NCBI GenBank assembly: GCA_964367085.1
Contig: CAYIWL010000001.1
Coordinates: 1-46,651 of the forward strand
Direction of reading: 5' to 3'
Origin: Candidatus Woesearchaeota archaeon
GTDB lineage: Archaea > Nanobdellota > Nanobdellia > SCGC-AAA011-G17 > ARS1403
Length of the DNA stretch: 46,651 nucleotides
The position numbers were made by a program, and so were the translations under genes. Below are positions 21,361 to 43,855 of this stretch, one piece after another (positions within the stretch are counted from its first letter, which is position 1; every line of letters begins with the position of its first letter). Below the pieces are notes generated by a model. It did no database searches. It saw nothing but the letters and a program-made list of their open reading frames with translations, and had not been told where the DNA came from.

Positions 21361-21363
21361 ACA

Positions 21364-23132: not shown

Positions 23133-23140
23133 TAAATATT

Positions 23141-24291: not shown

Positions 24292-24414
24292 CTTATTTTG
24301 ATAATGAAATGCCTTTTAAAAATATATTGTTTCTTTTATTTCAAAAAGCCTCGTTAATGTTACAATGCAGAAGAGTAGTTACATTTATATAGAAGTTTTG
24401 AAATATATTTCTGC

Positions 24415-26794: not shown

Positions 26795-27019
26795 ATGGCA
26801 ACTAAAACTATATCCATTACTGAAGAGGCTTATGACCGGCTGAATTTTAAAAAAGCAAAGAATGAAAGCTTTAGTGAAGTTATTAACAGGCTTACGAATA
26901 AAGTAAACATATTGGATTTTGCTGGAATTTTAAGCAAAGAAGAGTGGAAAAAACTAGAAGAAAATGTAAAAAAATCCAGATTATTGAGCCGGAAGAGATT
27001 ATCGAGGATTACATTATGA
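26795..27019 (+). CDS. vapB: VapB-type antitoxin (DUF217/COG1753-like)
   Basis: Motifs are KTISITEEAYDRLNFKKAKNESFSEVINRL and an ATGA overlap with the PIN gene. Confidence 0.65.
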   Translation: MATKTISITEEAYDRLNFKKAKNESFSEVINRLTNKVNILDFAGILSKEEWKKLEENVKKSRLLSRKRLSRITL

Positions 27020-27405
27020 TATTGGATACCACGGCGATTATTGATTTAATTAGAGGAGACAAAAATATCGAAGAGAAAATTAAATACTTAAATGAAGACA
27101 ATGTTGCTTTCTTATTTACTTCTATCTCAGTTTTTGAAATCTGGCAGGGTGCTGAAGATATTAATAATGAGAAAAAACTGGAAAAAATTCACTTTTTTCT
27201 GAATTCTTTTGGCTCTTTTGGCTTTGATATTCCCTCTGCAGAAGAGGCAGGGTCTATTCATGCAAAACTAAAACTTGAAGGAGAAATTATTGATCCAGAA
27301 GACAGCATGATTGCGGGCATTGCCAAAACTAATAATGAAACTGTTTTGACCAAAAATATAAAGCACTTTTCCAGAATCCCTGGATTGAAAGTTGAATCTT
27401 ATTGA
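27016..27405 (+). CDS. vapC: PIN-domain toxin (VapC-like)
   Basis: The N-terminus MILDTTAIIDLIRGD is PIN-like, with later SISVFEI and PEDSMIAGIA motifs. The start was moved to ATG 27016. Confidence 0.7.
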   Translation: MILDTTAIIDLIRGDKNIEEKIKYLNEDNVAFLFTSISVFEIWQGAEDINNEKKLEKIHFFLNSFGSFGFDIPSAEEAGSIHAKLKLEGEIIDPEDSMIAGIAKTNNETVLTKNIKHFSRIPGLKVESY

Positions 27406-27408
27406 GTT

Positions 27409-27969
27409 TTAAATTAAAACTTTTTTTGTTTTTATGTTTTTAGTTATTTTTTTTATTTCTTCTAAGAATATATTTTCATATTCTGGTTGAATTTCTATTA
27501 ATCCAGGATTAAGCAAACCCCCTCCATATTTTTTAATCAATCCATACTTTCCTTTTTTCCCTTTTAAAGTGTAATGAAGTTTTACTTTTTCTTTTTTCTC
27601 TAGGTTTTTTAATTCATAAGATATTTGAATTTTTGGAGTTAACCCGAAAATCTTGGAAAAATAATCTTTTGTGATTAAACTTTTCCCGTAAAATAAAATA
27701 TTTTCTCTTGTAAAGTTTCCTTCATGAAAGAACGAATAAAGGTCAAAAGCATTTATATGAATAGGAAGTTCTGATTCTTTTTTTAGCTGGTTTTTAATTT
27801 CCTGAGATTGATTTAATTGTTTCTTTAATGGGATTTTCTGGAATATTACGGCTATGTCTACATCATTTGGAGTCGTTCCTTCTATCATGGAAGATCCAAA
27901 CTGGACCATATCCAGCACGTCTTTGTTATAATCTAATTTTAGTTTTTTCTGCCATAGTTTGTACGTCAT
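27409..27969 (-). CDS. Pol-beta-superfamily nucleotidyltransferase-domain protein
   Basis: The core motif is VQFGSSMIEGTTPNDVDIAVIF (the GS...DxD nucleotidyltransferase core). Confidence 0.55.
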   Translation of the reverse strand: MTYKLWQKKLKLDYNKDVLDMVQFGSSMIEGTTPNDVDIAVIFQKIPLKKQLNQSQEIKNQLKKESELPIHINAFDLYSFFHEGNFTRENILFYGKSLITKDYFSKIFGLTPKIQISYELKNLEKKEKVKLHYTLKGKKGKYGLIKKYGGGLLNPGLIEIQPEYENIFLEEIKKITKNIKTKKVLI

Positions 27970-28137: not shown

Positions 28138-28275
28138 ATGACGAGAGTAAACATAGAAATTGTGGATGAGCTGCACAAGAAGGCTAAGCTAGCTGCTGTT
28201 CTGGAAAATAAAACCTTGATAGAATTCATTAATGAAGCTGTTAAGGAAAAGGTTGAAAGAGGGAAGAAGAAATGA
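28138..28275 (+). CDS. Ribbon-helix-helix (CopG/Arc-like) small protein, 45 aa, absent from the ORF track
   Basis: Hand translation gives MTRVNIEIVDELHKKAKLAAVLENKTLIEFINEAVKEKVERGKKK, which fits a beta-strand plus two helices. It forms an ATGA overlap with 28272. Confidence 0.55.
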   Translation: MTRVNIEIVDELHKKAKLAAVLENKTLIEFINEAVKEKVERGKKK

Positions 28276-29072
28276 TTGAACCATTTAGAAAAGCGTTCGC
28301 GGAAAGAGGGATTGGGAAAAGAGGAGTGAGCATGATTTTTGTCATTGCTGGGATTGCTGTTGTTGTAATCGCTGCTTTAGTTGTATTCTTTACAAGCGAA
28401 GATGTGCAAGTTGGAAGGAGGATAAGCAGTACACAGGTTGAGAGCGTAAGAGAATATGTTGGAGGATGTATTAACGAACAATTAATAGAAAAGTTAAATG
28501 AGAGAAGGATGTATGGCGGGAGAAGCAGTCTTGACTTTAGGCCTTCTAACAATCGGAATCATCCATTTTATAATTATAATGTTTTGAATAAGCCTACGGA
28601 TAATCTTCTAGATATTAACATTATAGGACGAGAAATTGCTAGTGACATTGAGGATTATATTAAAAACGATGGTTGTTCTTTAGATATTTTTAAAGATAAT
28701 TTCGAGATTGAGGAGCGAAAAGATTTTGTTCATGCTGAAGTTGATATATCTGATGATTTTGTTGTTTTAGGTGTTAATTACCCTGTCATTGTTAAGAAAG
28801 GTGGATCTGAAATAAAATTTGAGGCTTATGACATTACGTTGGAAGATAATTTTGGAGGGGTTTATGGTCTTGTGAGAGGCATTTTAAATGGATTTGCTGG
28901 AGGCAGTACCGATGATATATCTGATTATTGCTTTAATTATCGCGATTTGTTCTGTTTTTCAGATCCTAGAAATGATTTTACTTTGATTAAGATAGTGAAT
29001 ATAAAAGATCTCCCCTCTCCTGGGAATGTAGTTGATCCTGGATTGGAGTTTTCGTTTGTTGTTTCAAGATGA
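28272..29072 (+). CDS. Pilin-like protein with a class III-type signal peptide, paralog of 43852..45837
   Basis: The N-terminus is FAERGIGKRG-VSMIFVIAGIAVVVIAALVVF. The downstream regions also align with 43852 (REYVGGCINEQL versus VSYTNNCIEKI, GG, a conserved Cys, and V.V.I.DD blocks). Confidence 0.55.
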   Translation: MIEPFRKAFAERGIGKRGVSMIFVIAGIAVVVIAALVVFFTSEDVQVGRRISSTQVESVREYVGGCINEQLIEKLNERRMYGGRSSLDFRPSNNRNHPFYNYNVLNKPTDNLLDINIIGREIASDIEDYIKNDGCSLDIFKDNFEIEERKDFVHAEVDISDDFVVLGVNYPVIVKKGGSEIKFEAYDITLEDNFGGVYGLVRGILNGFAGGSTDDISDYCFNYRDLFCFSDPRNDFTLIKIVNIKDLPSPGNVVDPGLEFSFVVSR

Positions 29073-31063
29073 AAAAATTAATAATGTTCGGACTCTTTGT
29101 AGTTTTGGTTAGTTTGTTCAGCCCTTTTGTTAGTTCTCAATCTACTGGTTTTTGCTGCTTAGAAAAAAGTGGCTATTGCAGTCCAAATAAAGCAGAAAAT
29201 GATTGTAAAGACTCTGGCGGAATAATCCAGGGAGTTGGTGCTTGTTATGATGCGAATGGCATCTCTCCTTATAACTCATGCAGTTTAAGTGCATGTACAT
29301 TTTTTAATGGAAAGTGTAGTATCCAGTCTGTTGCCCGTTGTGAATCCGTATTAAAAGGGACTGTTAACACCGAACTCACTGCTGAGCAATGTAGCGAGAT
29401 GAATATTCCTGTTAACGTTGGAGGATGTTGTATTTCTTCAGATGAAAGTTGTGGCATTTCTTCAAGGAATCAATGTGATGGGAATTTTTTTGAAAAGAAC
29501 TGCAACCAAGTTTCGGAATGTCAAGAGAAAGGTGGGGAAGTGAGAGAAGGATGTAGTGAAGATGGTAGAAAAGTGATTAAGACGAACCAGTTTGGCATTC
29601 GAGAAATTGAAGAGCTTCCTGAAGATGAAGCATGTGTGATTGAGGATGGTAAAATCAAAAGAAAATCAACTTCTTGTAAAGTCGGAGAAAAAACTAAAGT
29701 CATTACATTTAATCTAGACTCTGGGCAGTCGTTGTTTAAGGAAGAGCCTATTATAGAGAAAATGCTTGGTGCTTTTAAAGGAGAAGGAGTAAATGAAAGA
29801 AAGAATGGAGAGAGTTGGTGCATTGTCTATGGAAGTAGTGATGGGGTTAATTGGGACTTGTATCCTAAATCTGCTTTGGAAGAGGATGACGATTTAAGAA
29901 TAAAATATTCTGCTGGACAAAGACATTATATTTATACTTGCAAAAATGGAGATGTAACTCCTGAGCCAGGAGACTTGTTTAGAGGTAATGGGGGGGTTTG
30001 TTTTCAGAATGATGAGATAAGATATTATTTAATTGGAACCCCCGATGAATGGGCTGCCACTTGTGATTATAAAGAATTTGGATATGGGTATGGCAGTGAT
30101 AATGATAAAAAATCTATGGAAGAAAAGATTAGATATTCTACTGCGGTAGTTTCAGGACATAGAGTTAGACAAAAGAAAGAGGTTAATTCTGGAATTATCA
30201 ATTATCAGAATGGTTTTAGCCAGGCTAAATTAGTTGATAATTATGAATTCACTAATGGATGTAAGAAGGAAGATAAAAAACCAAGATATCCTGTTGGTAA
30301 CCAATTTTATGATGTAGCAGTTACTCCTGTTAATGCTCCTACAGTAAAATGTGGGCAGTGTGGAGAGGGATTTTGGAATAGATGCGGAAGTAAGGAATGT
30401 TATAAGCTTGGAGATTGCAGTTATGGAGGAAGAGAACTTTGGAGAGGGGTTTTTGGAGGGATTATTCCAGACTGTGTTAAAGGAGCAATTATTGCTGAAG
30501 TTGCTTACTTAACTGCTGGCAGTGCGGGATTGCATGATTTCGGCGGATGGGGAAGTGTTCTTGAGGGTGGGGGGGCTGGTGCTGGGTCTGGTGCTGGTTT
30601 ACCTACTGTCCCTACAGGACCTCCAGCAGTATCTCCCTCAACAACTCCTTTCGTTCCGTTGGAAGAAAGTGGATCTGTTGCTGGGAATGTTGCTCAAAGT
30701 GCTGCACAGAAAGCTAGTGAACAGGCTGCGTATATCGTTGTTAAAGAAGGAGGACAGTCTACTGCACAAAAAGTCACGAATTATCTTATTGTTGCAGGTA
30801 CTGCCAATAACCTTGTAAGGGCAACTTTTGATAATGACAGAAATATTAGAGATGCTCCTTCTGTTGATGCTAATGTTGTTGGCAATATAAATGGCGGAGT
30901 GGGTGTTGACATTACGGAAACTACGTCGGATAATAATGGAAATATTTGGGGCAAAACGGCTGATGGGAGATTTGTTATGCTAAACTCCCCTGATGGTACA
31001 AATCCTGCTAGACTAACACGTGTGCAGAATACTTTGTCTCCGGAGGATATAGAGACGGAATAG
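29069..31063 (+). CDS. Cys-rich secreted protein with a Gly/Pro-rich linker and an SH3b-like C-terminal domain
   Basis: It has a signal peptide (LIMFGLFVVLVSLFSPFVSSQS) and many Cys in the first 470 aa. A hydrophobic/Gly-rich stretch and a PTVPTGPPAVSPSTTP linker lie at about 30480-30660. The segment NLVRATFDNDRNIRDAPSVDANVVGNINGGVGVDI...GNIWGKTADGRFVML (about 30808-31010) is SH3_3-like. Confidence 0.55.
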   Translation: MKKLIMFGLFVVLVSLFSPFVSSQSTGFCCLEKSGYCSPNKAENDCKDSGGIIQGVGACYDANGISPYNSCSLSACTFFNGKCSIQSVARCESVLKGTVNTELTAEQCSEMNIPVNVGGCCISSDESCGISSRNQCDGNFFEKNCNQVSECQEKGGEVREGCSEDGRKVIKTNQFGIREIEELPEDEACVIEDGKIKRKSTSCKVGEKTKVITFNLDSGQSLFKEEPIIEKMLGAFKGEGVNERKNGESWCIVYGSSDGVNWDLYPKSALEEDDDLRIKYSAGQRHYIYTCKNGDVTPEPGDLFRGNGGVCFQNDEIRYYLIGTPDEWAATCDYKEFGYGYGSDNDKKSMEEKIRYSTAVVSGHRVRQKKEVNSGIINYQNGFSQAKLVDNYEFTNGCKKEDKKPRYPVGNQFYDVAVTPVNAPTVKCGQCGEGFWNRCGSKECYKLGDCSYGGRELWRGVFGGIIPDCVKGAIIAEVAYLTAGSAGLHDFGGWGSVLEGGGAGAGSGAGLPTVPTGPPAVSPSTTPFVPLEESGSVAGNVAQSAAQKASEQAAYIVVKEGGQSTAQKVTNYLIVAGTANNLVRATFDNDRNIRDAPSVDANVVGNINGGVGVDITETTSDNNGNIWGKTADGRFVMLNSPDGTNPARLTRVQNTLSPEDIETE

Positions 31064-31069: not shown

Positions 31070-34000
31070 ATGAAAAGATTTAATTTAAAATTGATCTGCA
31101 TTTTGATTTTAATAGTCTTAAGTAGCTTTATTAGTATTCATAATGTTTATAGTTATGCTGGTGTTGATGATGCTATTGTTCTTGGAATCGGGTGCATTGG
31201 CGGAATGTTTTTTAGTGGTGGAAGTTGTAGGTTATATCAGCCACCTAAACAAAATTATGATTGTGGAGTTTGCAATGATAAAGATAAATTTCTATTTGGC
31301 AAATGTACTGAATATCAATGCAGGGCTATTGGAAGAGACTGTGTTTTTGTCCCTAGCCTAAAGGATTCGAGTGAAGGTTTCTGCCTTAATAAAAGAGAGC
31401 AGGCTTTGGTCGAGAATGAAATAGTTTCTTGTGGTGTTTTGGATATAGCGACTATGAGGATTAAAGAAGATGTTAGAAATATTTATGATGATTCAGTCAG
31501 TTCAGAATCTCAAAGTGACCAGAGTGATGGTTCGGCTCCTCCCGACATTACAGGAAACGCTCTAAATCCGGGGGGTAGAACAAGAAGTGTTGCTGCATCT
31601 GAAAACAGGGTTTTGAAAGGTTGCGATTTGGGTGATTTAGCAATAAATAAATTGTATGGGTTTATACTTACTACGAACAGGCCAGTTGAATGCAGGTTTA
31701 GTACGGTCCCTAGAAAAGAGGATCTGTTTACAGTAGATTTGTTCGATGGTGTCACAGAAGGGATGTCTGATGAGGAAGCTTATAGGATAATCTTAGAAAA
31801 TGTAGGTAATAGTAAGGTGAAGTTATTTACTGAGTTTCCTAATGGCGTAGATCATTTATGGCCTATTCATTTTAATGTTGCCGAATGGACTTCAGATAAT
31901 ATTAAGGAATGTAATGATGGGGGTTGTACTTTTTATGCTAGATGTGCTGATTTTGATGGGAGCAATGTCATGGAGGAAGATTTCATATTTACCTTCAACA
32001 TAGTTGATCCTGTTGATGACACTGAAGGCCCTAAGATTATTGACTTCAATCCTGAAAACAGCAATGGTCTACAAAGATATACATTGCCTTTAAGTGCTAA
32101 TGGAAATTTAAATGTTGAATTTCGTGTTTCTGATGAAACTGGAATTAAGGAATGTAGGTATAGCAGGAACGATGGAGGATATGGACAAATGACTTTGATT
32201 AATGACTGTAAACCTAATACGGATGATACTTCGCAATTTATCCAGCAATGCAATGTTGCTTTGAGTGAGGTTAGAGAAGGAGATAATTTATTTTATTTCA
32301 ATTGCATGGACACTGATGAAAAAGAGAACATTAATCCTACGAATTATGTCTATAATGTTGTAGGAGCAAGCAGTTTGTCTTTACAGGTTAAATCTCCTTT
32401 GGATGGGAGCACAATTGATGGAGTTAGTGATATATTAGAAGTTGTGACTTCTGGTGGTACTGATGGAACTGCTGTTTGCAAATATAGTTATTCTAGAATC
32501 GGTGGCGGGATTTCTGGTACTAATCTTGTTTTTGCTTCAGATACTCCTGGTTCTGAGGATAAACGAGAACACAAACAAGAAATTAATTTCTTAACCGAAG
32601 ATGCTGATTATATCTTAATTGTTGATTGTGAAGATTTACATGATAACCAAAATAAAGCCAGTGCAACTGTAAACTTTAAATTTGAGAAATATGTTGCTCC
32701 TCCTGAAGGCGCTGTTGTTTGCGAAGTGGATAATACGTGTCCTTTATGCAGCAAGGATAAATATTGTGCTGAGCTTGAGGGAGAAAAATATCTGTGCAAT
32801 CCTACTACGGATGTAAGACAGAGTTGCACTAATGGAGTTTGCTCTGCTGCAAATTGCCCTAGCACAACTAAAACTTATGGAGCATCTTATTGTTCATTAG
32901 ACCCAACTCCATTATGCTTGAGTGATCAGGATAACGATGAAATCGAGGATGCTTTAGACTGCAATGATAAGGATACTCAAACTGGCAGAACAATTGGACA
33001 GTGTATAGAAGCTTTATGTGAAACCTGTTCTGAAAATTCTGAAAGTGCTGCCAATGATGGGAATTGTGTTAAGAAAAGAGGTTGTGTTATTGATTGCAAT
33101 AATAACTACTTTGACCAGAATCAAGCTATATGCTTAAGCGCTAAAGATAATGGATGCAAGTGGAGTGGAGATGAAAATAAATGCGGATATGATTGTGCTG
33201 AAGGATATAATGATGATGATAGTAATTCTGTTTGCGTTCCCGAAGGCATTGTTGAGATTAAAGGAGAATTACCAGTTGGTTGCGAACTAAGCGAAGTTAA
33301 ATGGTATGATCTGGAAAATGGTAGGCCCTATTCTAATGCAGTTTCTGTAGATGAAGATACTGAGATTGCTTTGAAAGTTAGAGGTAATGAGCAATGTAAA
33401 GATGCAGATATTGAAATTGATTTATATGATTACGAAGAATTTTTGGGAGAGAGTGTTTATGAGCAGATTACCTTTATGGGTTTCCCGAAAGTATTGAAAT
33501 TAGATGAAAGAAGTGCGGGGGGAGGGTATTACAAAGTTGCGCTATTGACCTTGCCTTGGCAGGGAGATGCAAATGAAGAATATGAAGACGAAGATCCAGA
33601 ATTAGTTGCTGCGTTTGGTGATGTATTCAGCGCTTCTTCAAATGAGAAAACTCAGTTAATAAAGATAAATAAGATAACCACCCCTCCGGGTGCAAAAGCT
33701 GGAGATGCTTGTGAAACTGCTGATCAATGCGATGGAGTGTACGGTCCTGCTGGGGCTTTAGGTTTGACTTGTGTTAAAACTGAACAGAAATGTCCAACTA
33801 CCACTCCTCCGCCAAATCCTGTTCTTTGCGGAAATAATAATTTAGATGAAGGAGAGAGTTGCGATGGAAGCTTGCGGGATGGAAAAACTTGCGACGACTT
33901 TGATAATCAAGTGGGAACTTTACAATGTGCAAGTGATTGTAATGGATTTGATACAAGCTCTTGTAGAAATCCTGATCAACCAAGCCCTGGTGGAGGCTGT

Positions 34001-37000
34001 ACTGTAAAATTTGGAGATGTTGTTTGTCCTGGAATTTACGGCTATGAAGGCCAAAATCTTAAATGCTTTGATAAAGGTGATAATTGTCCTGCTGTAACAA
34101 CTGGCCAACCTCCCGGTGGCGGCGGGGTACCTGGAACTGGCACATTAAACATTGGAGAGATATCTTCTTTAAAAGGGAATATTGTGATAATTACTAATAA
34201 AGATGCTGAGTGTGAAGTCTATAACAGTAGGTCTTATGTTAGTTCAGCTAAAATAGGCAACATGCATAAAGAACCTATTGGAAGCAACACCCATCATTCA
34301 TATTCTTACGATGTTGTCGGTACTTATGATACGTGGTGGGTTAAATGTACAGCTGGTAGCGAAGTGGCTGATAAAAAAGTTCCAACATTTACTGTTACTT
34401 CTGGAGATACAAATGGCAACAATGTTCCTTTAAGAATTGACAGAGTGTTTGTTACTGAAGATAAAGAAGTAGTTGTATGGACTTCTGGTGGTAGAGGGAA
34501 TGATGGAAGTGCTGATTGTGCAGTTTATAGTAGTGGTGCATTTACTTCTAAAATTGCGGATATGACCTCTTTTGACTTAGGAGATGTTGATACTCATAGT
34601 TATAGTCATAATACTCCCGGAACTTATAACGGATGGTATGTCAGATGTGAAGATAATGGCGATGTGAAAACTCAGGTTGTTCCTAGCTTTACCATTGTTG
34701 AGGGTCATGATAATGACCGTGATAATGATGGAAAATTAAATACCGAGGATAATTGTTCTGATATTGCCAACGCTGATCAAAAAGACTCTGACAATGACGG
34801 GGTGGGAGATATCTGCGATACTGGAGAAGATCTGACTCTACCCGTTGTAAATATAATTGCTCCTATTGATGGTGCTGAATTAAGACAAAGTGATATTAGT
34901 GTTAATGCCGAGTTTAGCGATGAGACCATAACTAATTGCGAGGCTAAATTAGATCTTGGAAGATTTATAGCAATGGATGATGACAATAGGAATAATGGTA
35001 TTGCTTCTTATTCATTTGCAGAGGTTAATGTTGGACAACATACTATCCAAGTTTGGTGCAGAGATAGTAGCGGAAAAATTGGAAAGGATGAAGTAACATT
35101 TATGGTAATAAGTAGGGATCCCGGTACAGATAATAATCCTCCTACAATTGAGATAGAATCTCCACAGGATAATGCAGTATTAAGACAAAATTATGTTGAT
35201 GTTAGTGTCAGATTTAGCGATGAGACCAATACTGAATGCTCTGCAAGACTAGATTTTGGAACTTTTACAAAGATGAATGGAGGAGGGACAACCAGTGGCA
35301 TTGCAACACATAAATTTACCAATCTGCAAGTTAGAGAGCAACCTTATGGCCTTTCGGTAAGGTGCGTTGATGGAAATAATAATCCTGTTGAGAGAAGCGT
35401 AAGATTTGCTGTTGAAAACGATAATCCTAATAGCGATCATAATAACCCCGTCGTTGAAATTCAATCACCTTTGAACAATGTAGAGTTAGAAGAAGGTGAT
35501 GTTGAAGTTATTGTTGCATTTTCTGATGAAACAACAACGACATGTACTTTAAGACTTGATTCTGGAAGAGTATTACAGATGCTTGATGATGGACTGACAA
35601 GCGGAGTTGCATATTATAAACTGCTTGGTATGAAGGCTAGACAAAATCCTTATAATTTGTTAGCAGAGTGTAAAGATAGCAATAATAATATCGGAAGAGA
35701 TAGCATTAATTTTGTTGTGAGGAAAGAAGGAAGTGGAACTGAACCAGAAGAAAACTCCATTGACGTCTTTATTGACTTACCAAGGCAAACAGACAGATTT
35801 TCTGTTGGGGATAGCTTGTTATTGAGTGTGAGGAGTAGTGAAAGAGCCGATTGCAGATATATCGATTATAATTTAAGAGAAACTAAACCGGTTTATGATG
35901 ATATGATTGCCTTGAATTCTGTAGATAGTTCAGGAAAGAATCATGCTTTAAGGATAATTTATTCTGGAGATAAAGAAGGATTTTATGTGATGTGCAAGAA
36001 TGATGCAGGATCAGGGTATAATTTTGTTGAGGTGATTAGAAAAGCAGATGATGTTGATAAGCCATTGGGGATAAAAACTGTGAGTTCTGCAAGGGGCAGG
36101 ATTGTTGTTGAGACTATTGGCGGCAAATCAGATGATGGAAGTGCAAGTTGCAGCGTCTATAACAGCATTTCTATGATAGATTCAAATAAAGTTAGTGATT
36201 TAAGGAGCTCTGTGTTAAATGCAAAAACTTTTGCTCATGCATATACCCATACAACTCCTGGAACTTATAATGGGTGGTATGTGAGATGCGCTGATGATGA
36301 AGATGCGAGAGATATCCAATCAATGTCGATCGATGAGTTTACTGTTACTCCTGGCGGCGTTATTGTGGCAGATAAACCTTTGGAAATTGATAATCTAAAC
36401 TCTGATAGGGGGAACATTATTGCTATAACTAGTGGTGGCGGGGATGATGATGGAAGCGCCGATTGTGACTTGTTTGACCATATCAATTTGAGAAATAAAA
36501 TTATTGATTTGGAGTCGGTTAATTTAGGAAGAACTTTTGCTCATACTTACATTCATATAACTCCTGGAACTTATAGTGGATGGTATGTGAGATGCGCTGA
36601 TGATGAGAATGCAGATAGGATTAGAGGAAGAACTGTTCCTACTTTTACAGTAAGAGAAGGTGATGTTCCTGGAGAAATGATAGATGTGAGGATAACATCT
36701 CCATTATCAAATGCTGAGTTTAGCTCTGGTGAAAATGTCTTGCTGAGTGTTTCAACTAATGAAGCTGTTGACTGCAGGTATTCTTCTTACACTCTTGGCG
36801 GAGGGGAATTGCCTAATTATGATAATATGGAAATATTGAATCCTTCTACACAAGCTAAAACAATTCATGCAAAACAAATTGTTTATTCTGATGATAATGG
36901 ATATTATGTGAAGTGTGTTAATAATCTTAAATCTGGGGATAAGTTCGTTGTTGTAAAGAAAAAAACTGGGCAGGAAGAATGTCCTTATGACTGCAGCAGA

Positions 37001-38896
37001 AACAATAATTGCATTACACCGTGTAGTACAGATTCTAAATGCGTTGCAGATCTTGATTGCGCTTCTGTTTGCAATGCCGACGGTGATTGCGATGCTGGAG
37101 AAAATGTAAATAATTGTGCTGTTGATTGCACTCCCTGTGCCAATGGTGCTGTTAGAGATTGTGGCACTTCTGATATTGGATTGTGTGCTTTAGGCAGACA
37201 GACATGTGTAAATAATAGATGGAATGAATGCAGCGGGAATATAAATCCTATGGCTGAAATTTGCGGAGACAATTCTGATAATGATTGTGATTCAAGTATA
37301 GATGAGGGGTGTGCTTGCACTATTGGAGCTACTAGAGGTTGTGGCACCGACGTGGGAGTTTGTACAACTGGAATTCAACGCTGTATAAGTGGAGATTGGG
37401 ATGTTTGTAGTGGAGTTAAACCTCAACCTAATGAAGTATGCGGTAATAATTTAGATGATGATTGTGACGGGAATGAAGATGAAGGATGTGAAGAACCACC
37501 TGGACCACCAACTGGAGATTGTAGAATATCTAGAGCAATGTGGGTTAGTGAAGATGGAAGAAATCAGCTAAGTGGGGATATTAATGAAAACACAATTGTA
37601 AATGTTGCTTTGCAGGGACAAAATTGTAATGGACAACAAATAAGCTTAGAACTTTATGGGCTTGATGACAGAAATCTTTTAGGAAAAAGTTATGAAAGAA
37701 TTACTAATATAAATTTCCCACAGACGGTTACTTTTGAAGATCAAGGGGTTGCATTTGCTCAATGGACAGTTAGATGGATTGAAGATACTGGATTTACATT
37801 GGATAATGATCCTGAATTTATATTTAGAGCTGTTGGCACTGATTTAGAATCTCCTGTTATCAAAGTAAAAAAAATTGTAAGCAGTTCATCTGATACCGAT
37901 GGAGATGGGAGATTAAATGAAAATGATAATTGCCCGAGTGTTGCTAATGCAGATCAATTAGATTCTGATAATGATGGAATTGGAGATGCTTGTGATTCCC
38001 CGGGAGGTGGCGGAACTGGAGCTTCTAGCCTGATATTAGGAGAAGTAGGGCCGAGCGGAACTGTGCAGACAATAACGCCTGAACTCTTCATTAATTTAAG
38101 AGGAGGCCCAGATCAGAACGGAGTTGCAACTTGCCACTTTAGGAGAGGATTTACTCGAGAATTAGAGGAAAGACTTAATCCAAATGATTACGACGGAACA
38201 ATGGATTATGAAAGGGTTTTTGGCGGAACCACTAAATATAGTAAAACATTAAACAACATTAATGTCGGAAACCATGAATATTATATCCGATGCCAGGATT
38301 CTTTAGGAGCATTAACGCAGCTAAGAAGAATTAATTTTGCGGTTCAGATTCCTATCACTCAGCAACTTAACATTTTAGCTTCCGGACCTGATGGAGATTA
38401 TGGGAAGAGAAAAATTGAGATGGCTACTGCAACTAGCGGAGGTGTCGGTGACATTAGTTGTGTTTATACTGGCACTGCAATAGTCCCGTCTAGAATATCC
38501 GGAAGCAAGCTTGATCTTGGTTCAGGAGTTCTCGTGCATACCGCGAATGTAACTGTAAATGCTGATAGCACTTATAATATTAGGGTTGAGTGCAGTGATA
38601 GTGCCGGACAGACTGTGGCGCAGGATCATACTATAAGAGTTGTCGAGGATAGCGTTGCCCCTGAAATAAGGCAGATAATCAGCGAGGGTAGCAACAAATA
38701 TGTAACTGTTAGCGAGGAGGCTGACTGCGAAATTGCAACTGGAGACTCTGTCCCTGTTAATGAAAATCAATGGAAAGGAGTTGGCAAGGATGCAAGAAAC
38801 AGGGCTAAACATTTGATTGCTTTAAGTGGAAGCTATTACTTCAGATGTAAGGATATTTGGGATAATCAGATGAGCATTGTTAAGATTAATCCTTGA
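31070..38896 (+). CDS. Giant (2608 aa) extracellular multi-repeat adhesin-like protein
   Basis: The uninterrupted 7.8-kb ORF has an N-terminal signal/anchor. Two thrombospondin-type-3-like Ca-binding repeats lie at about 34709-34820 and 37889-37996. Three tandem 100-aa Ig-like repeats lie at about 34838-35730. Four repeats of about 100 aa with a C...W[YW]V[RK]C signature lie at 34138-34705 and 36059-36661. Two Cys-rich repeats ending in DNDCD..DEGC lie at 37133-37489. Confidence 0.8.
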   Translation: MKRFNLKLICILILIVLSSFISIHNVYSYAGVDDAIVLGIGCIGGMFFSGGSCRLYQPPKQNYDCGVCNDKDKFLFGKCTEYQCRAIGRDCVFVPSLKDSSEGFCLNKREQALVENEIVSCGVLDIATMRIKEDVRNIYDDSVSSESQSDQSDGSAPPDITGNALNPGGRTRSVAASENRVLKGCDLGDLAINKLYGFILTTNRPVECRFSTVPRKEDLFTVDLFDGVTEGMSDEEAYRIILENVGNSKVKLFTEFPNGVDHLWPIHFNVAEWTSDNIKECNDGGCTFYARCADFDGSNVMEEDFIFTFNIVDPVDDTEGPKIIDFNPENSNGLQRYTLPLSANGNLNVEFRVSDETGIKECRYSRNDGGYGQMTLINDCKPNTDDTSQFIQQCNVALSEVREGDNLFYFNCMDTDEKENINPTNYVYNVVGASSLSLQVKSPLDGSTIDGVSDILEVVTSGGTDGTAVCKYSYSRIGGGISGTNLVFASDTPGSEDKREHKQEINFLTEDADYILIVDCEDLHDNQNKASATVNFKFEKYVAPPEGAVVCEVDNTCPLCSKDKYCAELEGEKYLCNPTTDVRQSCTNGVCSAANCPSTTKTYGASYCSLDPTPLCLSDQDNDEIEDALDCNDKDTQTGRTIGQCIEALCETCSENSESAANDGNCVKKRGCVIDCNNNYFDQNQAICLSAKDNGCKWSGDENKCGYDCAEGYNDDDSNSVCVPEGIVEIKGELPVGCELSEVKWYDLENGRPYSNAVSVDEDTEIALKVRGNEQCKDADIEIDLYDYEEFLGESVYEQITFMGFPKVLKLDERSAGGGYYKVALLTLPWQGDANEEYEDEDPELVAAFGDVFSASSNEKTQLIKINKITTPPGAKAGDACETADQCDGVYGPAGALGLTCVKTEQKCPTTTPPPNPVLCGNNNLDEGESCDGSLRDGKTCDDFDNQVGTLQCASDCNGFDTSSCRNPDQPSPGGGCTVKFGDVVCPGIYGYEGQNLKCFDKGDNCPAVTTGQPPGGGGVPGTGTLNIGEISSLKGNIVIITNKDAECEVYNSRSYVSSAKIGNMHKEPIGSNTHHSYSYDVVGTYDTWWVKCTAGSEVADKKVPTFTVTSGDTNGNNVPLRIDRVFVTEDKEVVVWTSGGRGNDGSADCAVYSSGAFTSKIADMTSFDLGDVDTHSYSHNTPGTYNGWYVRCEDNGDVKTQVVPSFTIVEGHDNDRDNDGKLNTEDNCSDIANADQKDSDNDGVGDICDTGEDLTLPVVNIIAPIDGAELRQSDISVNAEFSDETITNCEAKLDLGRFIAMDDDNRNNGIASYSFAEVNVGQHTIQVWCRDSSGKIGKDEVTFMVISRDPGTDNNPPTIEIESPQDNAVLRQNYVDVSVRFSDETNTECSARLDFGTFTKMNGGGTTSGIATHKFTNLQVREQPYGLSVRCVDGNNNPVERSVRFAVENDNPNSDHNNPVVEIQSPLNNVELEEGDVEVIVAFSDETTTTCTLRLDSGRVLQMLDDGLTSGVAYYKLLGMKARQNPYNLLAECKDSNNNIGRDSINFVVRKEGSGTEPEENSIDVFIDLPRQTDRFSVGDSLLLSVRSSERADCRYIDYNLRETKPVYDDMIALNSVDSSGKNHALRIIYSGDKEGFYVMCKNDAGSGYNFVEVIRKADDVDKPLGIKTVSSARGRIVVETIGGKSDDGSASCSVYNSISMIDSNKVSDLRSSVLNAKTFAHAYTHTTPGTYNGWYVRCADDEDARDIQSMSIDEFTVTPGGVIVADKPLEIDNLNSDRGNIIAITSGGGDDDGSADCDLFDHINLRNKIIDLESVNLGRTFAHTYIHITPGTYSGWYVRCADDENADRIRGRTVPTFTVREGDVPGEMIDVRITSPLSNAEFSSGENVLLSVSTNEAVDCRYSSYTLGGGELPNYDNMEILNPSTQAKTIHAKQIVYSDDNGYYVKCVNNLKSGDKFVVVKKKTGQEECPYDCSRNNNCITPCSTDSKCVADLDCASVCNADGDCDAGENVNNCAVDCTPCANGAVRDCGTSDIGLCALGRQTCVNNRWNECSGNINPMAEICGDNSDNDCDSSIDEGCACTIGATRGCGTDVGVCTTGIQRCISGDWDVCSGVKPQPNEVCGNNLDDDCDGNEDEGCEEPPGPPTGDCRISRAMWVSEDGRNQLSGDINENTIVNVALQGQNCNGQQISLELYGLDDRNLLGKSYERITNINFPQTVTFEDQGVAFAQWTVRWIEDTGFTLDNDPEFIFRAVGTDLESPVIKVKKIVSSSSDTDGDGRLNENDNCPSVANADQLDSDNDGIGDACDSPGGGGTGASSLILGEVGPSGTVQTITPELFINLRGGPDQNGVATCHFRRGFTRELEERLNPNDYDGTMDYERVFGGTTKYSKTLNNINVGNHEYYIRCQDSLGALTQLRRINFAVQIPITQQLNILASGPDGDYGKRKIEMATATSGGVGDISCVYTGTAIVPSRISGSKLDLGSGVLVHTANVTVNADSTYNIRVECSDSAGQTVAQDHTIRVVEDSVAPEIRQIISEGSNKYVTVSEEADCEIATGDSVPVNENQWKGVGKDARNRAKHLIALSGSYYFRCKDIWDNQMSIVKINP

Positions 38897-39052: not shown

Positions 39053-40306
39053 ATGGCACAGATAACCAAAGATATTCTGATACTACAGAAGCGAGAACTG
39101 GATAAGCGAATTAAAGAAAAATATATCGACAGAGGAAACGAGCTAAAAGGGTTAAACAGCAATATTATCAAAGTTATTATCGGGCCTAGAAGGGCCGGAA
39201 AATCCTTCTTTGCCATTCATACTTTGGATAAATATGGAAATTTTGGCTATGTTAATTTTGACGACGAGAAACTAATTGAGACGGAAAACTATGATGAGGT
39301 AATAACTGCTGTGAACTCTGTTTATAATAATCCTAAAGTGATATTATTTGACGAGATCCAGAATCTTGCTAAATGGGAATTGTTTGTGAACCGGCTACAA
39401 AGGCAAGATTATAACTTAGTAATTACTGGGAGCAACGCCCAACTTCTGAGCAAAGAATTAGCTACACATTTAACTGGAAGGTGTTTTTTAACATATATCT
39501 TTCCATTTTCATTTAAGGAATATCTCCAATTTGAGGAGGAGCCAACAACTACGGAAATAAAAGAGAAATTGTCTAATTATCTAATTTATGGGGGGTATCC
39601 AGAGCCGCTGCTCAAAAATTTGGGCTATGGAGATTATTTATCAACTTTGTTTGGCTCAATAATCTATAAAGATATTGTGAAGAGGTATAAGATAAGGTCA
39701 GCAGACGAAATAGAAAATTTAGCCTTTTATCTCTTATCAAACATTGCAACTGAGTATTCTTATCATTCTTTAACGAAAATAAGTGGCATTAAAAGCTCGC
39801 ATACAATTCAAAAATATCTAGGATATTTGGAGGAAGCGCTTATTTTCTTTAGCTTGAACCGATTTTCTTATAAAGTTAAAGAGCAGCTTGCATCCAATAA
39901 AAAGATTTATTGCATTGATAACGGCTTTATCACGGCTAAGTCATTTAAATTAAGCCCGGATATTGGAAAACTTTATGAAAATCTAGTAGCTATTGAATTA
40001 AAGAAAAAAGAGATGAAGAATAAACTAAGTGTTTTTTATTGGAAAAATCCACAACAGGAAGAAGTAGATTTTGTACTTAAAAAAGGGGCAAAAGTTAAGC
40101 AGCTTATCCAAGTTTGCTTTAATATCAGCAATGTGAAAACGAAGGATAGGGAAATTCGCGCTTTGCTTAAGGCAAGCCGAGAGCTAAAATGCCAAGACCT
40201 TCTTATTATCACAGAAAATTATGATAATGAAAAAAATATTGAATGGTTCGGAATAAAAAGAAATATTAAGTTTTTACCTTTATGGAAATGGTTGCTTGAA
40301 AAATGA
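39053..40306 (+). CDS. AAA_14 plus DUF4143 family ATPase
   Basis: Walker A is IIGPRRAGKSFF and Walker B is VILFDEIQNL. GSNAQLL follows, then a DUF4143-like middle region and a C-terminal EEVDFVL motif. Confidence 0.75.
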   Translation: MAQITKDILILQKRELDKRIKEKYIDRGNELKGLNSNIIKVIIGPRRAGKSFFAIHTLDKYGNFGYVNFDDEKLIETENYDEVITAVNSVYNNPKVILFDEIQNLAKWELFVNRLQRQDYNLVITGSNAQLLSKELATHLTGRCFLTYIFPFSFKEYLQFEEEPTTTEIKEKLSNYLIYGGYPEPLLKNLGYGDYLSTLFGSIIYKDIVKRYKIRSADEIENLAFYLLSNIATEYSYHSLTKISGIKSSHTIQKYLGYLEEALIFFSLNRFSYKVKEQLASNKKIYCIDNGFITAKSFKLSPDIGKLYENLVAIELKKKEMKNKLSVFYWKNPQQEEVDFVLKKGAKVKQLIQVCFNISNVKTKDREIRALLKASRELKCQDLLIITENYDNEKNIEWFGIKRNIKFLPLWKWLLEK

Positions 40307-40797
40307 AACGGGGACAAACTCAGCAAATATTTGTATGGATTCTTGTTTTAGTCGTTGCTGTTTCAATTTTATTTTTTGGGATTAAGCTGATAAAGAAAAG
40401 CGAAGGGTTGAAAGATGAAGCTTTGATTGTGAGATTCTTTGATAATTTAGATAAAAAATTAAGCCAGTATTATTATCTCGATAAAGGCAGTTCGGGAGAA
40501 GAGAAGTTTTTATTGCCAAATGATGTGAAAGAGGTTTGCTTTATTAACTCCGATATTAGTGTTCTGGCCGAGTTTACAAATACTCAAGTTGATGAAGATA
40601 AAAAGGATTATTTTTTCCAGTTAAAAGATTTTAGTGATGTCTTTATCCTGCCTAATAATCTCTATCAAGGAAATAGGTACAATTTAACTATGGTATTTAC
40701 TTCTATAGACAACCCAAAATGCTTAAATGTTGCAAATGGAATCTTAACTGTTAATCTAGAGAATAAAGGGGTAACTGAAGGTGTTGAGATCAAATAA
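40303..40797 (+). CDS. Small pilin-like protein with a class III signal peptide
   Basis: The N-terminus is MKRG-QTQQIFVWILVLVVAVSILFFGI. It forms an ATGA overlap with the ATPase stop. Confidence 0.55.
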   Translation: MKRGQTQQIFVWILVLVVAVSILFFGIKLIKKSEGLKDEALIVRFFDNLDKKLSQYYYLDKGSSGEEKFLLPNDVKEVCFINSDISVLAEFTNTQVDEDKKDYFFQLKDFSDVFILPNNLYQGNRYNLTMVFTSIDNPKCLNVANGILTVNLENKGVTEGVEIK

Positions 40798-40939: not shown

Positions 40940-41836
40940 ATGACAAAAGAATTAACTGTACTAAATCAAGAAGATATTAAAAGTAAAATTTATACTATTC
41001 ATGGATTACCGGTAATGCTTGATGAAGACTTAGCAGAGCTTTATCAGGTTAAGACAGGAAGGTTGAATGAGCAAGTGAAAAGAAATATTGAGAGATTTCC
41101 TAGAGAATTTATGTTTCAATTAAATGAAAATGAATATAATATCTTGATATCGCAAATTGCGACTTCAAGTTCAAAGTGGGGAGGAAGAAGGAAACTGCCA
41201 TATGTTTTTACTGAACAAGGAGTAGCTATGCTTTCTGGGGTCCTAAATAGTAACATTGCGATAACGGTAAGTATTCAAATAATGAATGCTTTTGTGGCAA
41301 TGAGGAGATTTATTTCTCTTAATTCCCAATTATTCCAGAGAATGGATGTAATTGAGAAGAAGCAGATTGAAAGTGATAAAAGAATTGATAAGGTATTTGA
41401 TATAATTGAAAGTAAAAATATCAAACCCGATAAGGGAATATTTTTTAATGGACAGATTTTTGATGCGTATATGTTCTTTTCGGATATAATAAGAACTGCA
41501 GATAATTCAATTGTTCTAATTGATAACTACATTGATGATTCTGTTTTAACACTCTTTAATAAAAGAAAAAAGAATGTGAAAGTTACAATATTTACTAAAG
41601 AACTATCAAAGCAATTATCCTTAGATTTAAAAAAATATAATTCTCAATACCCTTCCATTGAAGTTAAAAAATTCAAGTTATCGCATGATCGGTTTATAAT
41701 AATCGATAATAAGAACGTATACCATTTTGGAGCATCATTAAAAGATTTGGGAAAAAAGTGGTTTGCATTTTCCAAGTTTGATAATGAGACATTTTTCTTA
41801 CTCGATAAGTTGAAAAAAGAGGTACTACATGAATAA
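40940..41836 (+). CDS. ORF6N (KilA-N-like) domain protein with a C-terminal HDRFIIID-containing domain
   Basis: Motifs are IYTIHGLPVMLDEDLAELYQVKTGRLNEQVKRNIERFPREFMFQL...GGRRKLPYVFTEQGVAMLSGVL, and at the C-terminus SHDRFIIIDNKNVYHFGASLKDLGKKWFAFSKF. Confidence 0.7.
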   Translation: MTKELTVLNQEDIKSKIYTIHGLPVMLDEDLAELYQVKTGRLNEQVKRNIERFPREFMFQLNENEYNILISQIATSSSKWGGRRKLPYVFTEQGVAMLSGVLNSNIAITVSIQIMNAFVAMRRFISLNSQLFQRMDVIEKKQIESDKRIDKVFDIIESKNIKPDKGIFFNGQIFDAYMFFSDIIRTADNSIVLIDNYIDDSVLTLFNKRKKNVKVTIFTKELSKQLSLDLKKYNSQYPSIEVKKFKLSHDRFIIIDNKNVYHFGASLKDLGKKWFAFSKFDNETFFLLDKLKKEVLHE

Positions 41837-42746
41837 AAGAGGAATGGCGATACCATTTGACTGGATGTTTTCTTTAGTTGCAGGAATCTTAATCTTTTCC
41901 TTTTTAATTTACTTTGCAGTGCAGCACACTGACTTGTTTGGAAAAATAACTACAAGGGTTGTTGCTGAAGAACTCGACGTTCTCTTTTCAGGTTATGAAA
42001 CCACCGAATCTAAAAGTGTTTTGGACTTTAAGAAAGAGGTTGAATTGAAATTTTCATGCAGCACAGGACAGGGACAGTCTTTTACAGTTAACAACAAAGA
42101 AGGAAAGAATTTGTGGGGGAAAATAATCTTTGCTCCTAAAGAAATTAAAAGCGACAAAGTAAATGTTGCTACGATGAGCTGGGATGTTCCTTTTAGGGCT
42201 GCTAACTTTATTTATTTGTGGGATAGGAAATACAATTTTGAGAACCCTCCCAACTTAGACATTTTGAGGTCTATTGATTCAACCAATGGAGATACAATTA
42301 TATTTAGATTTGTTGACCATGTAGATGAAAGTCCTGTATGTAGTGAGGATGGCAAAATAATCTATTATATAATTGAAGGGGGATATTATCATGGTTATGT
42401 CTGTTTCGCTAAAAACGAAGAAAGTGTTAAGTTCTTTGGAGAAGCAATGATGGTTGGTGCTATTTTTACCGACGATAGAGATGCGCTTATTTGTGCAAAT
42501 AAACTTGCAGTTAACAGATTAGAGATTATAAATGAAGTTTATAAAGAAAAGGCAAATAAACTTATAGAATCTGCAGATCAATTTAACTATCTGTGCAGCT
42601 ATGGCGAAGCCATGTACAATCCTAGTGCAGTAAACAATTTTGATCTAGGAAATGATCTTAACATCCAGTTTGGCTATGATGATGTTAACGTAGTTGAAAC
42701 TTCAAATGAAAATTTAATAAGGGAGGGGTGTCCAAGTGTCTACTAG
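41829..42746 (+). CDS. Pilin-like protein with a class III-type signal peptide
   Basis: The N-terminus is MNKRG-MAIPFDWMFSLVAGILIFSFLIYF. It overlaps the ORF6N gene by 8 nt. Confidence 0.5.
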   Translation: MNKRGMAIPFDWMFSLVAGILIFSFLIYFAVQHTDLFGKITTRVVAEELDVLFSGYETTESKSVLDFKKEVELKFSCSTGQGQSFTVNNKEGKNLWGKIIFAPKEIKSDKVNVATMSWDVPFRAANFIYLWDRKYNFENPPNLDILRSIDSTNGDTIIFRFVDHVDESPVCSEDGKIIYYIIEGGYYHGYVCFAKNEESVKFFGEAMMVGAIFTDDRDALICANKLAVNRLEIINEVYKEKANKLIESADQFNYLCSYGEAMYNPSAVNNFDLGNDLNIQFGYDDVNVVETSNENLIREGCPSVY

Positions 42747-43212
42747 GGGCCAACTGGAAATTGGAATCACAACAATGGTGTTAGTAGTATTCATTGTCTT
42801 GTTATTATTCAGCCTGATTCTCTATTTTAGGTTTACTTATATGGAAATAGAAGAGACTAAAACAACTTTATTCGATCAAAAATATAACAGCCTGTTAAGC
42901 GTAATAATTGGGATGCCCGAATTTAGATGTAGCAGAGGAGGGGTTGAAAGCGAATGCTTGGACGAAGTTAAATTAATGGTGTTTAAAGATGTCAGAGATA
43001 GTAATGATGACAATGATGAAAATAAAAAATATTATCAAAATCTATTCGGAAATGTGAAAGGAATCTGGGTTGAAATCCCCGGAGGTTCTCCTACTGAAAT
43101 TTATGGTTTGATTGGTTCTGATGGTGAGATTTATTCTGTCCCTGTTTCTGTATATAATCCTATTGAAAAAAAGTATAAAATTGGAATTTTAAAGATTAGT
43201 GGTGAAACATGA
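42736..43212 (+). CDS. Small pilin-like protein with a class III signal peptide
   Basis: A GTG start gives MSTRG-QLEIGITTMVLVVFIVLLLFSLILYF. It overlaps the upstream gene by 11 nt. Confidence 0.55.
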   Translation: MSTRGQLEIGITTMVLVVFIVLLLFSLILYFRFTYMEIEETKTTLFDQKYNSLLSVIIGMPEFRCSRGGVESECLDEVKLMVFKDVRDSNDDNDENKKYYQNLFGNVKGIWVEIPGGSPTEIYGLIGSDGEIYSVPVSVYNPIEKKYKIGILKISGET

Positions 43213-43729: not shown

Positions 43730-43855
43730 ATGAAAAAGTACCTCCTTCTTGTTGAGGATGAGAAATTGTGGGAGAAATTCAAGGATTCTATTAAAAGAGA
43801 CATCAACACCGAGATAATTGAACTGATAAAAGAGAGGGCTAATAGAAAGAAATGA
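43730..43855 (+). CDS. Ribbon-helix-helix-like small protein, 41 aa, absent from the ORF track
   Basis: Hand translation gives MKKYLLLVEDEKLWEKFKDSIKRDINTEIIELIKERANRKK. It forms an ATGA overlap with 43852. The layout matches 28138..28275. Confidence 0.45.
   Translation: MKKYLLLVEDEKLWEKFKDSIKRDINTEIIELIKERANRKK

Follow-up and report, generated by a model that had tools for sequence, protein, structure and literature searches.

The locus and its giant gene

The window, meaning the whole stretch of DNA that was analysed, comprises 46,651 nucleotides of the metagenome-derived contig CAYIWL010000001.1 (assembly GCA_964367085.1, Candidatus Woesearchaeota archaeon) and has a guanine and cytosine content of ~34%. 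It contains a giant gene (31070-38896, plus strand), which encodes a candidate surface adhesin of 2608 amino acids (aa) in one unbroken frame of 7.8 kilobases and which, together with the genes around it, is the subject of this study. Judged by its gene content, the host is an archaeon of the Woesearchaeota type, belonging to the DPANN group. Archaeal neighbours coding for PCNA, aIF2-alpha, GINS51, PAC2 and TrmB were found in the window by Pfam scans, and the nearest relatives of the giant protein are labelled Candidatus Woesearchaeota or Nanoarchaeota. A tRNA scan and an Rfam scan of the window were both without matches.

In the public gene call (P0001, 2597 aa), the gene begins 11 codons downstream of the ATG at 31070. 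The longer start is more likely to be the correct one, since the N-terminus of the orthologs is lysine-rich, as it is in the longer form. The giant protein is acidic, with a net charge of -197, and is rich in aspartate, glycine, serine, asparagine and cysteine (Cys). It contains 115 cysteines, of which 114 are located after the signal, and only two hydrophobic stretches, both N-terminal. The second of these, the helix at aa 32-50, could be either an anchor or a buried segment. It is followed by a small Cys-rich domain that has no Pfam match and is modelled with a predicted local distance difference test (pLDDT) score of 83-92 over most of the region. From the N-terminus onwards, the order is signal, hydrophobic helix, small Cys-rich domain, D01-D03, CR1, X1, CR2, D04, D05, T1, D06-D08, D09, D10, D11, D12, CR3, X2, T2 and D13-D15. 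The features of this chain and of the flanking genes are collected in Table 1.

Table 1. Domains of the giant protein and genes of the surrounding cluster, with positions in the window. L001 is the orthologous locus of another Woesearchaeota genome, and P numbers denote related proteins.
Feature	Position	Strand	Basis and remarks
Prepilin-like gene, 266 aa, ...GKRG then VSMIFVIAGIAVVV	28272-29072	+	L001 ortholog with 39% identity; no family model match
Secreted Cys-rich protein, 664 aa	29069-31063	+	L001 ortholog with 42% identity; 0 sequons against 5.6 expected
Signal peptide or membrane anchor, aa 1-28, MKRFNLKLICILILIVLSSFISIHNVYS	31070-31153	+	Hydrophobic; model helix 5-22; K-rich n-region kept in orthologs
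Gly-rich hydrophobic helix, aa 32-50, VDDAIVLGIGCIGGMFFSG	31163-31219	+	Model helix 32-48; conserved in P0002, P0005, P0007, P0010 and P0012
Small N-terminal Cys-rich domain, aa 53-125	31226-31444	+	C65, C68, C79, C84, C91 and C105 nearly invariant (49-sequence alignment)
D01-D03, two-cysteine β-sandwiches, aa 178-541	31601-32692	+	Family-wide N-terminal module; 53% identity to P0002, 48% to P0005
Cys-rich spacer CR1, aa 542-735, ~30 Cys	32693-33274	+	Cysteine map; conserved in P0005, partly in P0002; weak PSI match only
X1, first ~125-aa all-β domain, aa 731-872	33260-33685	+	Alignments; no Pfam or PDB sequence match
Cys-rich spacer CR2, aa 873-1021	33686-34132	+	Cysteine map; block conserved in P0005 ends about here
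WxVxC domains D04 and D05, aa 1022-1212	34133-34705	+	Self-BLAST and alignment; variable central cassette begins
TSP3 unit T1, aa 1213-1250, two Dx[DN]xDG and a Cys pair	34706-34819	+	Pfam TSP_3, 31.5 bits on fragment
FSDET Ig-like repeats D06-D08, aa 1252-1553	34823-35728	+	Big_7 and self-BLAST
CRY...YVMC domain D09, aa 1560-1660	35747-36049	+	43-46% identity to D12 (self-BLAST); no Pfam match
WxVxC domains D10 and D11, aa 1662-1864	36053-36661	+	53% identity to each other; D03 profile matches D10
CRY...YVKC domain D12, aa 1866-1968	36665-36973	+	Self-BLAST; weak Big_7 match, 16.8 bits
Cys-rich region CR3	36974-37492	+	Two ~59-aa PF11617-related units at 37133-37312 and 37313-37492
X2, second ~125-aa all-β domain, aa 2143-2272	37496-37885	+	pLDDT 75-83, all strands; conserved C-terminal block begins; colinear with P0005 from aa 2151
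TSP3 unit T2, aa 2275-2309	37892-37996	+	Pfam TSP_3, 42.1 bits; PDB sequence matches
D13-D15, C-terminal two-cysteine β-sandwiches, aa 2316-2608	38015-38893	+	34-49% identity to P0002 and P0005 C-termini; pLDDT 75-89, cysteines in strands
Prepilin-like gene, 164 aa, MKRG then QTQQIFVWILVL...	40303-40797	+	Motif; L001 comparison
Three overlapping prepilin-like genes, 305, 158 and 150 aa (41829-42746, 42736-43212, 43209-43661)	41829-43661	+	Weak TIGR02537 (E 0.018) and BasB (E 0.06) matches
Large prepilin-like gene, 661 aa, ...GKRG then QVTLFIIAG...	43852-45837	+	63% identity to L001 ortholog
Start of a secreted protein, runs off the window	45834-46651	+	62% identity to a 1214-aa L001 protein (21010-24654)

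Repeat motifs and family assignments

A sequence-only reading of the same DNA had described the giant open reading frame (ORF) as a mosaic of several repeat types, and all of the repeats that it listed were recovered, at most a few bases from where it had placed them. The mosaic architecture stands, with thrombospondin type 3 (TSP3), immunoglobulin (Ig)-like, PF11617-linked and Cys-rich parts in one chain. The T1 string DNDGKLNTEDNCSDIANADQKDSDNDGVGDICD is located at aa 1218-1250 (34721-34819) and the 35-aa T2 string at aa 2275-2309. In addition, three FSDET cores (34913, 35213 and 35519), exactly four W[YW]V[RK]C motifs (34334, 34634, 36275 and 36581) and three D.DCD motifs (37079, 37277 and 37454) are present.

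Repeat families were obtained by self-BLAST of the giant protein cut into 120-aa chunks. The four WxVxC domains matched at E-values of 1e-8 to 2e-20, the TSP3 pair at 6e-14 (52-67% identity), the three FSDET Ig repeats at ~1e-15 (40-49% identity) and the Cys-rich pair at 1.5e-13, with its two 59-aa units aligning at 49% identity. The CRY...YVKC pair (D09/D12) was also found in this way. The two domains of ~125 aa, which had been proposed to be homologous, gave no self-BLAST match at 1e-3; their relationship was confirmed by an alignment with 30% identity in which C, W and C are invariant, and it is bridged via copies in four other proteins.

Family membership was assessed against the Pfam gathering cut-offs, which are 25 bits for TSP_3 (PF02412), 24.1 bits for Big_7 (PF17957) and 27 bits for Cu-binding_MopE (PF11617). 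As isolated fragments, the two TSP3 units score 31.5 bits (aa 1205-1256) and 42.1 bits (aa 2268-2316), which upholds their identity, and the whole-protein TSP_3 score is 22.4 bits, just under the cut-off. Dx[DN]xDG motifs occur at aa 1216, 1239, 2275 and 2298, and the Cys pairs are C1229/C1249 and C2288/C2308. Among PDB sequences, T2 matches COMP (3fby), thrombospondin-2 and an OmpA-family protein (5wtl). For T2, the best matches of known structure come from animals (COMP and thrombospondins, ~33 bits per repeat, >50% identity), as would be expected if TSP3 units, or further segments of the giant protein, had been acquired from eukaryotes. However, the term "eukaryote-like", which had been applied to these repeats, is misleading, because the same long unit is present in the prokaryotic proteins P0003 (with a bacterial lipoprotein-type N-terminus), P0004 and P0005 (Pfam TSP3_bac), and the bacterial OmpA-family structure matches as well. 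Bacterial TSP3 repeats have also been described in the literature, and the PDB is biased towards animal proteins. An acquisition from eukaryotes is thus very improbable.

The Ig-like repeats were likewise verified, with a Big_7 score of 57.6 bits on the whole protein; on isolated domains, the scores are 28.8 bits for D06 and 16-17 bits for D07, D08 and D12. The suggested likeness of the Cys-rich units to MopE held through homologs that carry PF11617, but not through a direct Pfam match, which reaches 16.5 bits (E 0.01) and stays below the cut-off. A database search with CR3 matched 13 proteins with E-values of 3e-25 to 6e-12, and PF11617 is precomputed on 11 of them. By BLAST, both units together align with a Polyangiales "putative metal-binding motif-containing protein" at 42% identity over 120 aa. 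On the basis of these alignments, the CR3 units are homologous to bacterial PF11617 proteins, with metal binding as a putative property. Nothing useful came from searching PDB sequences with profiles built on the WxVxC domains, on the X domain or on the Cys-rich units.

A family of two-cysteine Ig-like domains

The cysteine map of the giant protein contains 15 domains of ~100 aa, in each of which precisely two cysteines occupy equivalent positions, and this corrects an earlier count of nine repeat domains. Profile links and two AlphaFold models indicate that most of the proposed "several repeat types" belong to one two-cysteine Ig-like family. A profile of the four WxVxC domains matches D03-type domains of other family members. 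An iterated search with D03, run under a deliberately large database-size setting, recovers D13, D14, D10, D07 and D05 of the giant protein, tying the last three to D03, as well as six domains of the related protein P0002. Profile-profile comparison of the domain subtypes, for which the alignments are shallow, gave mostly weak links and one with >90% probability. D09 and D12 are the least well tied to the family, with weak links. According to these profiles, D03, D13, D14 and the WxVxC and FSDET domains are one family. The proposed duplication of a large super-module is not supported. Identity is 53% between D10 and D11, 43.6% when D05 is compared with either of these, and ~32% when D04 is compared with the other three domains, a pattern that fits a stepwise duplication of single domains.

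The AlphaFold model of aa 1-545, for which 49 relatives were used, has a mean pLDDT of 79 and begins with two N-terminal helices and a small domain, after which β-sandwiches follow. The model of aa 1965-2608 contains confident β-sandwiches for X2 and D13-D15, and T2 is without a confident model. In both models, the conserved cysteine pairs of the modelled Ig-like domains (D01-D03 and D13-D15) are all located within strands. A Foldseek search of the PDB with both models returned tandem arrays of Ig and fibronectin type III domains with E-values of ~1e-9, including PTP-delta Ig-Fn, titin, Sidekick, mastigoneme, the GhpA grappling hook, complement MG domains, an archaeal S-layer protein and SiiE. 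The models thus show a predicted β-sandwich fold for the conserved modules D01-D03 and D13-D15.

Orthologs with conserved ends and a replaced middle

When the giant protein was compared with 5.8 billion proteins, the protein itself and one clear relative were found, namely P0002 (1689 aa) from a Candidatus Woesearchaeota genome from groundwater. A scan of species-representative genomes matched only the already-known contig. With the N-terminal 545 aa as query, an exhaustive profile search resulted in 298 representative proteins at E<=1e-3, including P0005 (2074 aa, a "PKD domain-containing protein" of Candidatus Woesearchaeota) and P0007 (2245 aa). Most of these relatives are 650-1100 aa long and have an Ala/Gly-rich hydrophobic N-terminal part; one is labelled Nanoarchaeota, and none has been characterised. 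Profile positions 54-110, which correspond to the small Cys-rich domain, are covered in most of the matches listed among the 298. By this profile evidence, the N-terminal module, consisting of a small six-Cys domain and three two-cysteine Ig-like domains, is a large unannotated family of ~300 protein clusters.

The genes for P0002 and P0005 are found at the same chromosomal position, downstream of PCNA and flavin reductase and with the same flanking genes, and both are therefore considered positional orthologs. The giant protein aligns colinearly with P0005 in two segments, aa 11-1028 (48% identity) and aa 2151-2608 (49%), and the 1120 residues that separate them (D04-D12, T1 and CR3) have given way in P0005 to a PKD array with a TSP3 unit. 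In P0002, the first 540 aa (53% identity), a single X domain and the C-terminal ~290 aa are retained; two-cysteine domains number 12, compared with 15 in the giant protein, and TSP3 is absent. Housekeeping neighbours are 79-88% identical between the genomes, with the exception of the gene at 18424-18861 (50%) and a methyltransferase gene at 18842-19453 (66%), whereas identity is 39-63% for genes of the surface cluster. The alignments show a giant protein family with conserved ends and a fast-evolving middle that has been exchanged.

Depletion of N-glycosylation sequons

The giant protein contains 2 N-x-S/T sequons, compared with 27.6 +/- 5.0 expected from its composition, and none of 500 shuffles (0/500) was as low. 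Control motifs, i.e., the reverse motif and five related ones, are at expectation. Depletion is also observed in relatives: P0005 has 1 sequon against 20.9 expected, P0002 has 4 against 17, and P0007, P0014, P0048 and P0012 are depleted as well. When the window and the orthologous locus L001 are taken together, proteins with a hydrophobic N-terminus contain 15 sequons against 93 expected, and proteins without one contain 18 against 19 expected. Depleted exported proteins are encoded at 31070-38896, 29069-31063, 1580-3480 and 41829-42746 in the window and at 10001-15070 and 21010-24654 in L001. In contrast, surface proteins of cultivated DPANN archaea have 13-52 predicted N-glycosylation sites each (10.1101/2023.10.27.564410). 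No description of sequon depletion in exported proteins was found in the searched literature. The loss looks like selection against N-glycosylation sites in exported proteins. In addition, since the depletion is shared with signal-bearing and not with cytoplasmic proteins, it provides independent support for export of the giant protein.

These data also bear on the possibility that the giant protein is an S-layer or envelope structural protein, with its Ig-like array forming or decorating a surface lattice. Archaeal S-layer proteins are Ig-like arrays, and the Haloferax S-layer protein (7ptp) and a Deinococcus protein (8cka) are listed by Foldseek; candidate S-layer proteins of DPANN archaea are Ig-folded too (10.1101/2023.10.27.564410), and the wide occurrence of the N-terminal module, in ~300 protein clusters of mostly 650-1100 aa, would also be in line with such a role. 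However, close relatives of 2608, 2074 and 1689 aa with a replaced middle are hard to square with a fixed lattice. Moreover, the described archaeal candidates carry many sequons, unlike the giant protein, which also has no C-terminal hydrophobic segment. A lattice function is therefore considered unlikely.

The flanking gene cluster

The giant gene is part of a conserved cluster of genes. The stop codon of the 664-aa gene ends 6 bases upstream of the giant gene start codon. The product of this upstream gene was considered as a counterpart of the N-terminal half of the ~800-aa relatives, and no match was found on test. An N-terminus with [KR]G followed by a hydrophobic helix, which is the pattern of archaeal class III (prepilin) signal peptides, is present in 6 of the 46 ORFs of the window, and all six flank the giant gene. 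The prepilin-like motif is kept in the orthologs of the six genes, which are found in the same order in two other Woesearchaeota genomes (loci L001 and L005).

This arrangement suggests a pilus-associated adhesin, in which the six prepilin-like neighbours would be minor pilins presenting the giant protein at the tip or base of a type IV pilus-like fibre, much as PilY1 is presented by minor pilins in Pseudomonas. This is a refinement of its reading as a surface adhesin. Archaeal type IV pilus loci often pair minor pilins with a large Cys-rich "adhesin" that has a signal peptide (PMC4858521), and there are weak matches to an archaellin/pilin N-terminal model and to BasB. On the other hand, no pilin or class III model of Pfam or NCBIfam is significant on the six neighbours, isolated N-termini included, and no pilus assembly ATPase, TadC/FlaJ platform protein or prepilin peptidase was found among the Pfam-scanned ORFs of the window. 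Furthermore, according to one preprint, DPANN genomes lack type IV pilus components (10.1101/2020.05.14.094862). A pilus-borne adhesin is possible but considerably less probable than the more general reading.

The gene that runs off the window at 45834-46651 has orthologs of ~1205-1214 aa with an SLT lytic transglycosylase domain (PF01464, recorded on the L001 ortholog). It is the last visible gene of the conserved cluster and represents a murein-cleaving type of enzyme in an archaeon. The gene directly after the giant ORF encodes an orphan ATPase in all three genomes, and the families are not orthologous: it is AAA_14/DUF4143 in the window (39053-40306) and in L005, and ATPase_2/DUF234 in L001 (15192-16514). 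A gene for an ORF6N anti-repressor-like protein (40940-41836) is located among the pilin-like genes in the window and in L005 and is absent in L001.

The anti-repressor-like gene, the orphan ATPases and a transposase nearby, together with the metagenomic origin of the contig and the internal repeats, might point to an assembly chimera or pseudogene, or to a fibre protein of a virus or mobile element. Foldseek against viral models also finds tail-fibre Ig arrays. However, these viral fold matches are generic with low template modelling (TM) scores, and none of the cluster genes has a match to a structural family of PHROGs. The reading frame has no interruption, and the copies of repeat DNA within the giant gene are at most 71% identical (<=71%), which makes collapse or expansion during assembly unlikely. 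A chimera is argued against by the colinear orthologs, which are found in three genomes at the same position beside PCNA. Viral origin was rejected because of the absence of PHROGs structural matches and the synteny across the three genomes, and the whole set of artefact and mobile-element explanations is regarded as highly improbable.

A probable exported, rod-like surface protein

The giant gene probably encodes an exported, elongated and rod-like multi-Ig protein of the cell surface, most likely used for attachment, to which a probability of about 0.6 is assigned. This reading builds on the domain identities, on the modelled β-sandwich folds of the conserved modules, on the conservation of the ends with replacement of the middle among orthologs, and on the conserved neighbourhood, all of which were demonstrated above. 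Export would be directed by the Sec-type N-terminal hydrophobic segment. The small Cys-rich domain and the first three Ig-like domains would form the base, followed by Cys-rich spacers. The central cassette would then consist of further Ig-like domains, two TSP3 calcium-binding units and the two PF11617-type repeats. A conserved C-terminal module, in which one ~125-aa β domain is combined with three Ig-like domains, would end the chain as its tip. Each Ig-like domain may be locked by one disulfide between its two conserved cysteines, and calcium may stiffen the TSP3 units, so that the protein would project from the cell as a rod. The variable middle, the C-terminal end or both could bind the surface of a partner, be it a host cell or a substrate, and replacement of the cassette would change reach or specificity. 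Candidates for the hold on the cell are the N-terminal hydrophobic segments and the neighbouring pilin-like proteins.

Several points weigh against this reading. Expression, localisation and binding of the giant protein are all inferred from its sequence. At the C-terminus, no recognised anchor of either kind, transmembrane segment or PGF-CTERM-like tail, was found. CR3 has no confident AlphaFold model (pLDDT ~25), and the fold proposed for the central WxVxC and CRY...YVKC domains depends on profile links, some of which are weak. The TM scores of the Foldseek matches are low (0.12-0.26), which is expected for comparisons among multi-domain chains, and the matches are generic for Ig arrays, leaving an adhesin, an S-layer protein and a fibre unseparated.

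A more far-reaching and rather doubtful proposal is that the cluster, with the 266-aa prepilin-like protein, the 664-aa Cys-rich protein, the giant protein, four to five more prepilin-like proteins and the ~1200-aa transglycosylase protein, encodes one host-contact organelle. In such an organelle, a pilus-like fibre would bear the giant adhesin with its exchangeable specificity cassette, and the transglycosylase would breach the wall of a bacterial host. The near absence of sequons would then reflect selection for an unglycosylated apparatus.

Other genes of the window

A gene for a protein with ATPase_2 and winged helix-turn-helix domains (minus strand) and an IS240-type DDE transposase gene are located at 21364-24004, between genes that are close together in L001. 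This region looks like an insertion of a few kilobases. At 12409-15106, two overlapping ORFs of 488 and 431 aa, with multiple hydrophobic segments and a soluble C-terminal part, adjoin two genes for GT2 glycosyltransferases. They have no Pfam match and may encode GT-C-type glycosyltransferases. A canonical AglB motif (WWDYG-type) is not present in any frame of the window. Two adjacent ORFs at 1580-2530 and 2533-3480 (316 and 315 aa) have signal-like N-termini and zero sequons each, and one of them has a weak CARDB match. At 26944-27969, two small convergent ORFs of 153 aa (plus strand) and 186 aa (minus strand) are without BLAST matches to the genes of L001. The longer of the two reads as nucleotidyltransferase-like, and the pair might be a candidate toxin-antitoxin module.

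Comparison with known systems

Bacterial giant Ig-repeat adhesins, such as SiiE (2yn3), Bap and the RTX adhesins, resemble the giant protein in being very long, acidic and extracellular, with tandem β-sandwiches and predicted calcium sites, and both SiiE and the Bap BSP domain are among the Foldseek matches to it. In these bacterial calcium-binding adhesins, the repeat number varies between strains. The giant protein differs from them in its archaeal origin, its Sec-type N-terminus, its conserved Cys-pair domains and its calcium sites, which would be located in separate TSP3 units and not between Ig domains. There is no sequence homology to SiiE, Bap or RTX adhesins, and no Pfam match for RTX repeats (HemolysinCabind).

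The TSP3 units are like those of thrombospondins and related proteins (PF02412; 3fby, 1yo8, 5wtl; PF18884), with 33-35 aa, two Dx[DN]xDG motifs, a Cys pair and >50% identity to COMP. Unlike in thrombospondins, two isolated units are present instead of a wire of 7-13 repeats, there is no C-terminal lectin-like domain, and calcium binding is predicted. The CR3 units share with PF11617 (Cu-binding_MopE) proteins, which are mainly from Myxococcota, a unit of ~59 aa with the pattern C..G..R.CGT..G.C..G.Q.C....W..C.G...P..E.C...D.DCDG..DE. They differ in the direct score of 16.5 bits against 27, in the archaeal host protein and in a metal binding that is putative.

In archaeal type IV pilus loci, minor pilins are accompanied by a large signal-peptide adhesin, for which an analogy with PilY1 has been drawn (Makarova, Koonin and Albers 2016, PMC4858521). 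Like these adhesins and Pseudomonas PilY1, the giant protein is a large secreted non-pilin among class-III-like genes and has abundant conserved cysteines. Unlike them, it has no DUF2341 or PilY1 Pfam domain, no gene for an assembly ATPase or platform protein is found in the window, and the pilin assignment is based on the motif only.

Large lineage-specific extracellular proteins with multiple Ig-like folds and a proposed role in host contact have also been described in DPANN archaea, such as MJ1_0160 and others of Nanobdella aerobiophila (10.1101/2023.10.27.564410). The 13-52 predicted N-glycosylation sites of the Nanobdella proteins contrast with the 2 sequons in 2608 aa. The group of Ig-fold DPANN surface proteins also includes the SPEARE proteins of Nanohaloarchaeum antarcticus. 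Unlike SPEARE, the giant protein is without a protease or nuclease domain.

Significance

DPANN archaea are believed to spend their lives attached to other cells, and the molecules used for contact are almost unknown, with very few members in culture. All recognisable part families of the giant protein are already known, as are giant Ig- or calcium-repeat surface proteins as a kind, and the protein alone is unsurprising, being built from known parts. New are the unannotated family, i.e., the N-terminal module, the X domain and the two-cysteine Ig variant, all without a Pfam model, as well as the cassette exchange, the conserved neighbourhood and the sequon depletion. The combination of a conserved module, an exchanged middle and pilin-like and wall-degrading neighbours provides candidates for studies of attachment and host range and for new domain models. 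In addition, the loss of sequons in exported proteins offers a simple signature for which whole genomes can be screened, and it may inform how glycosylation is handled in reduced cells.

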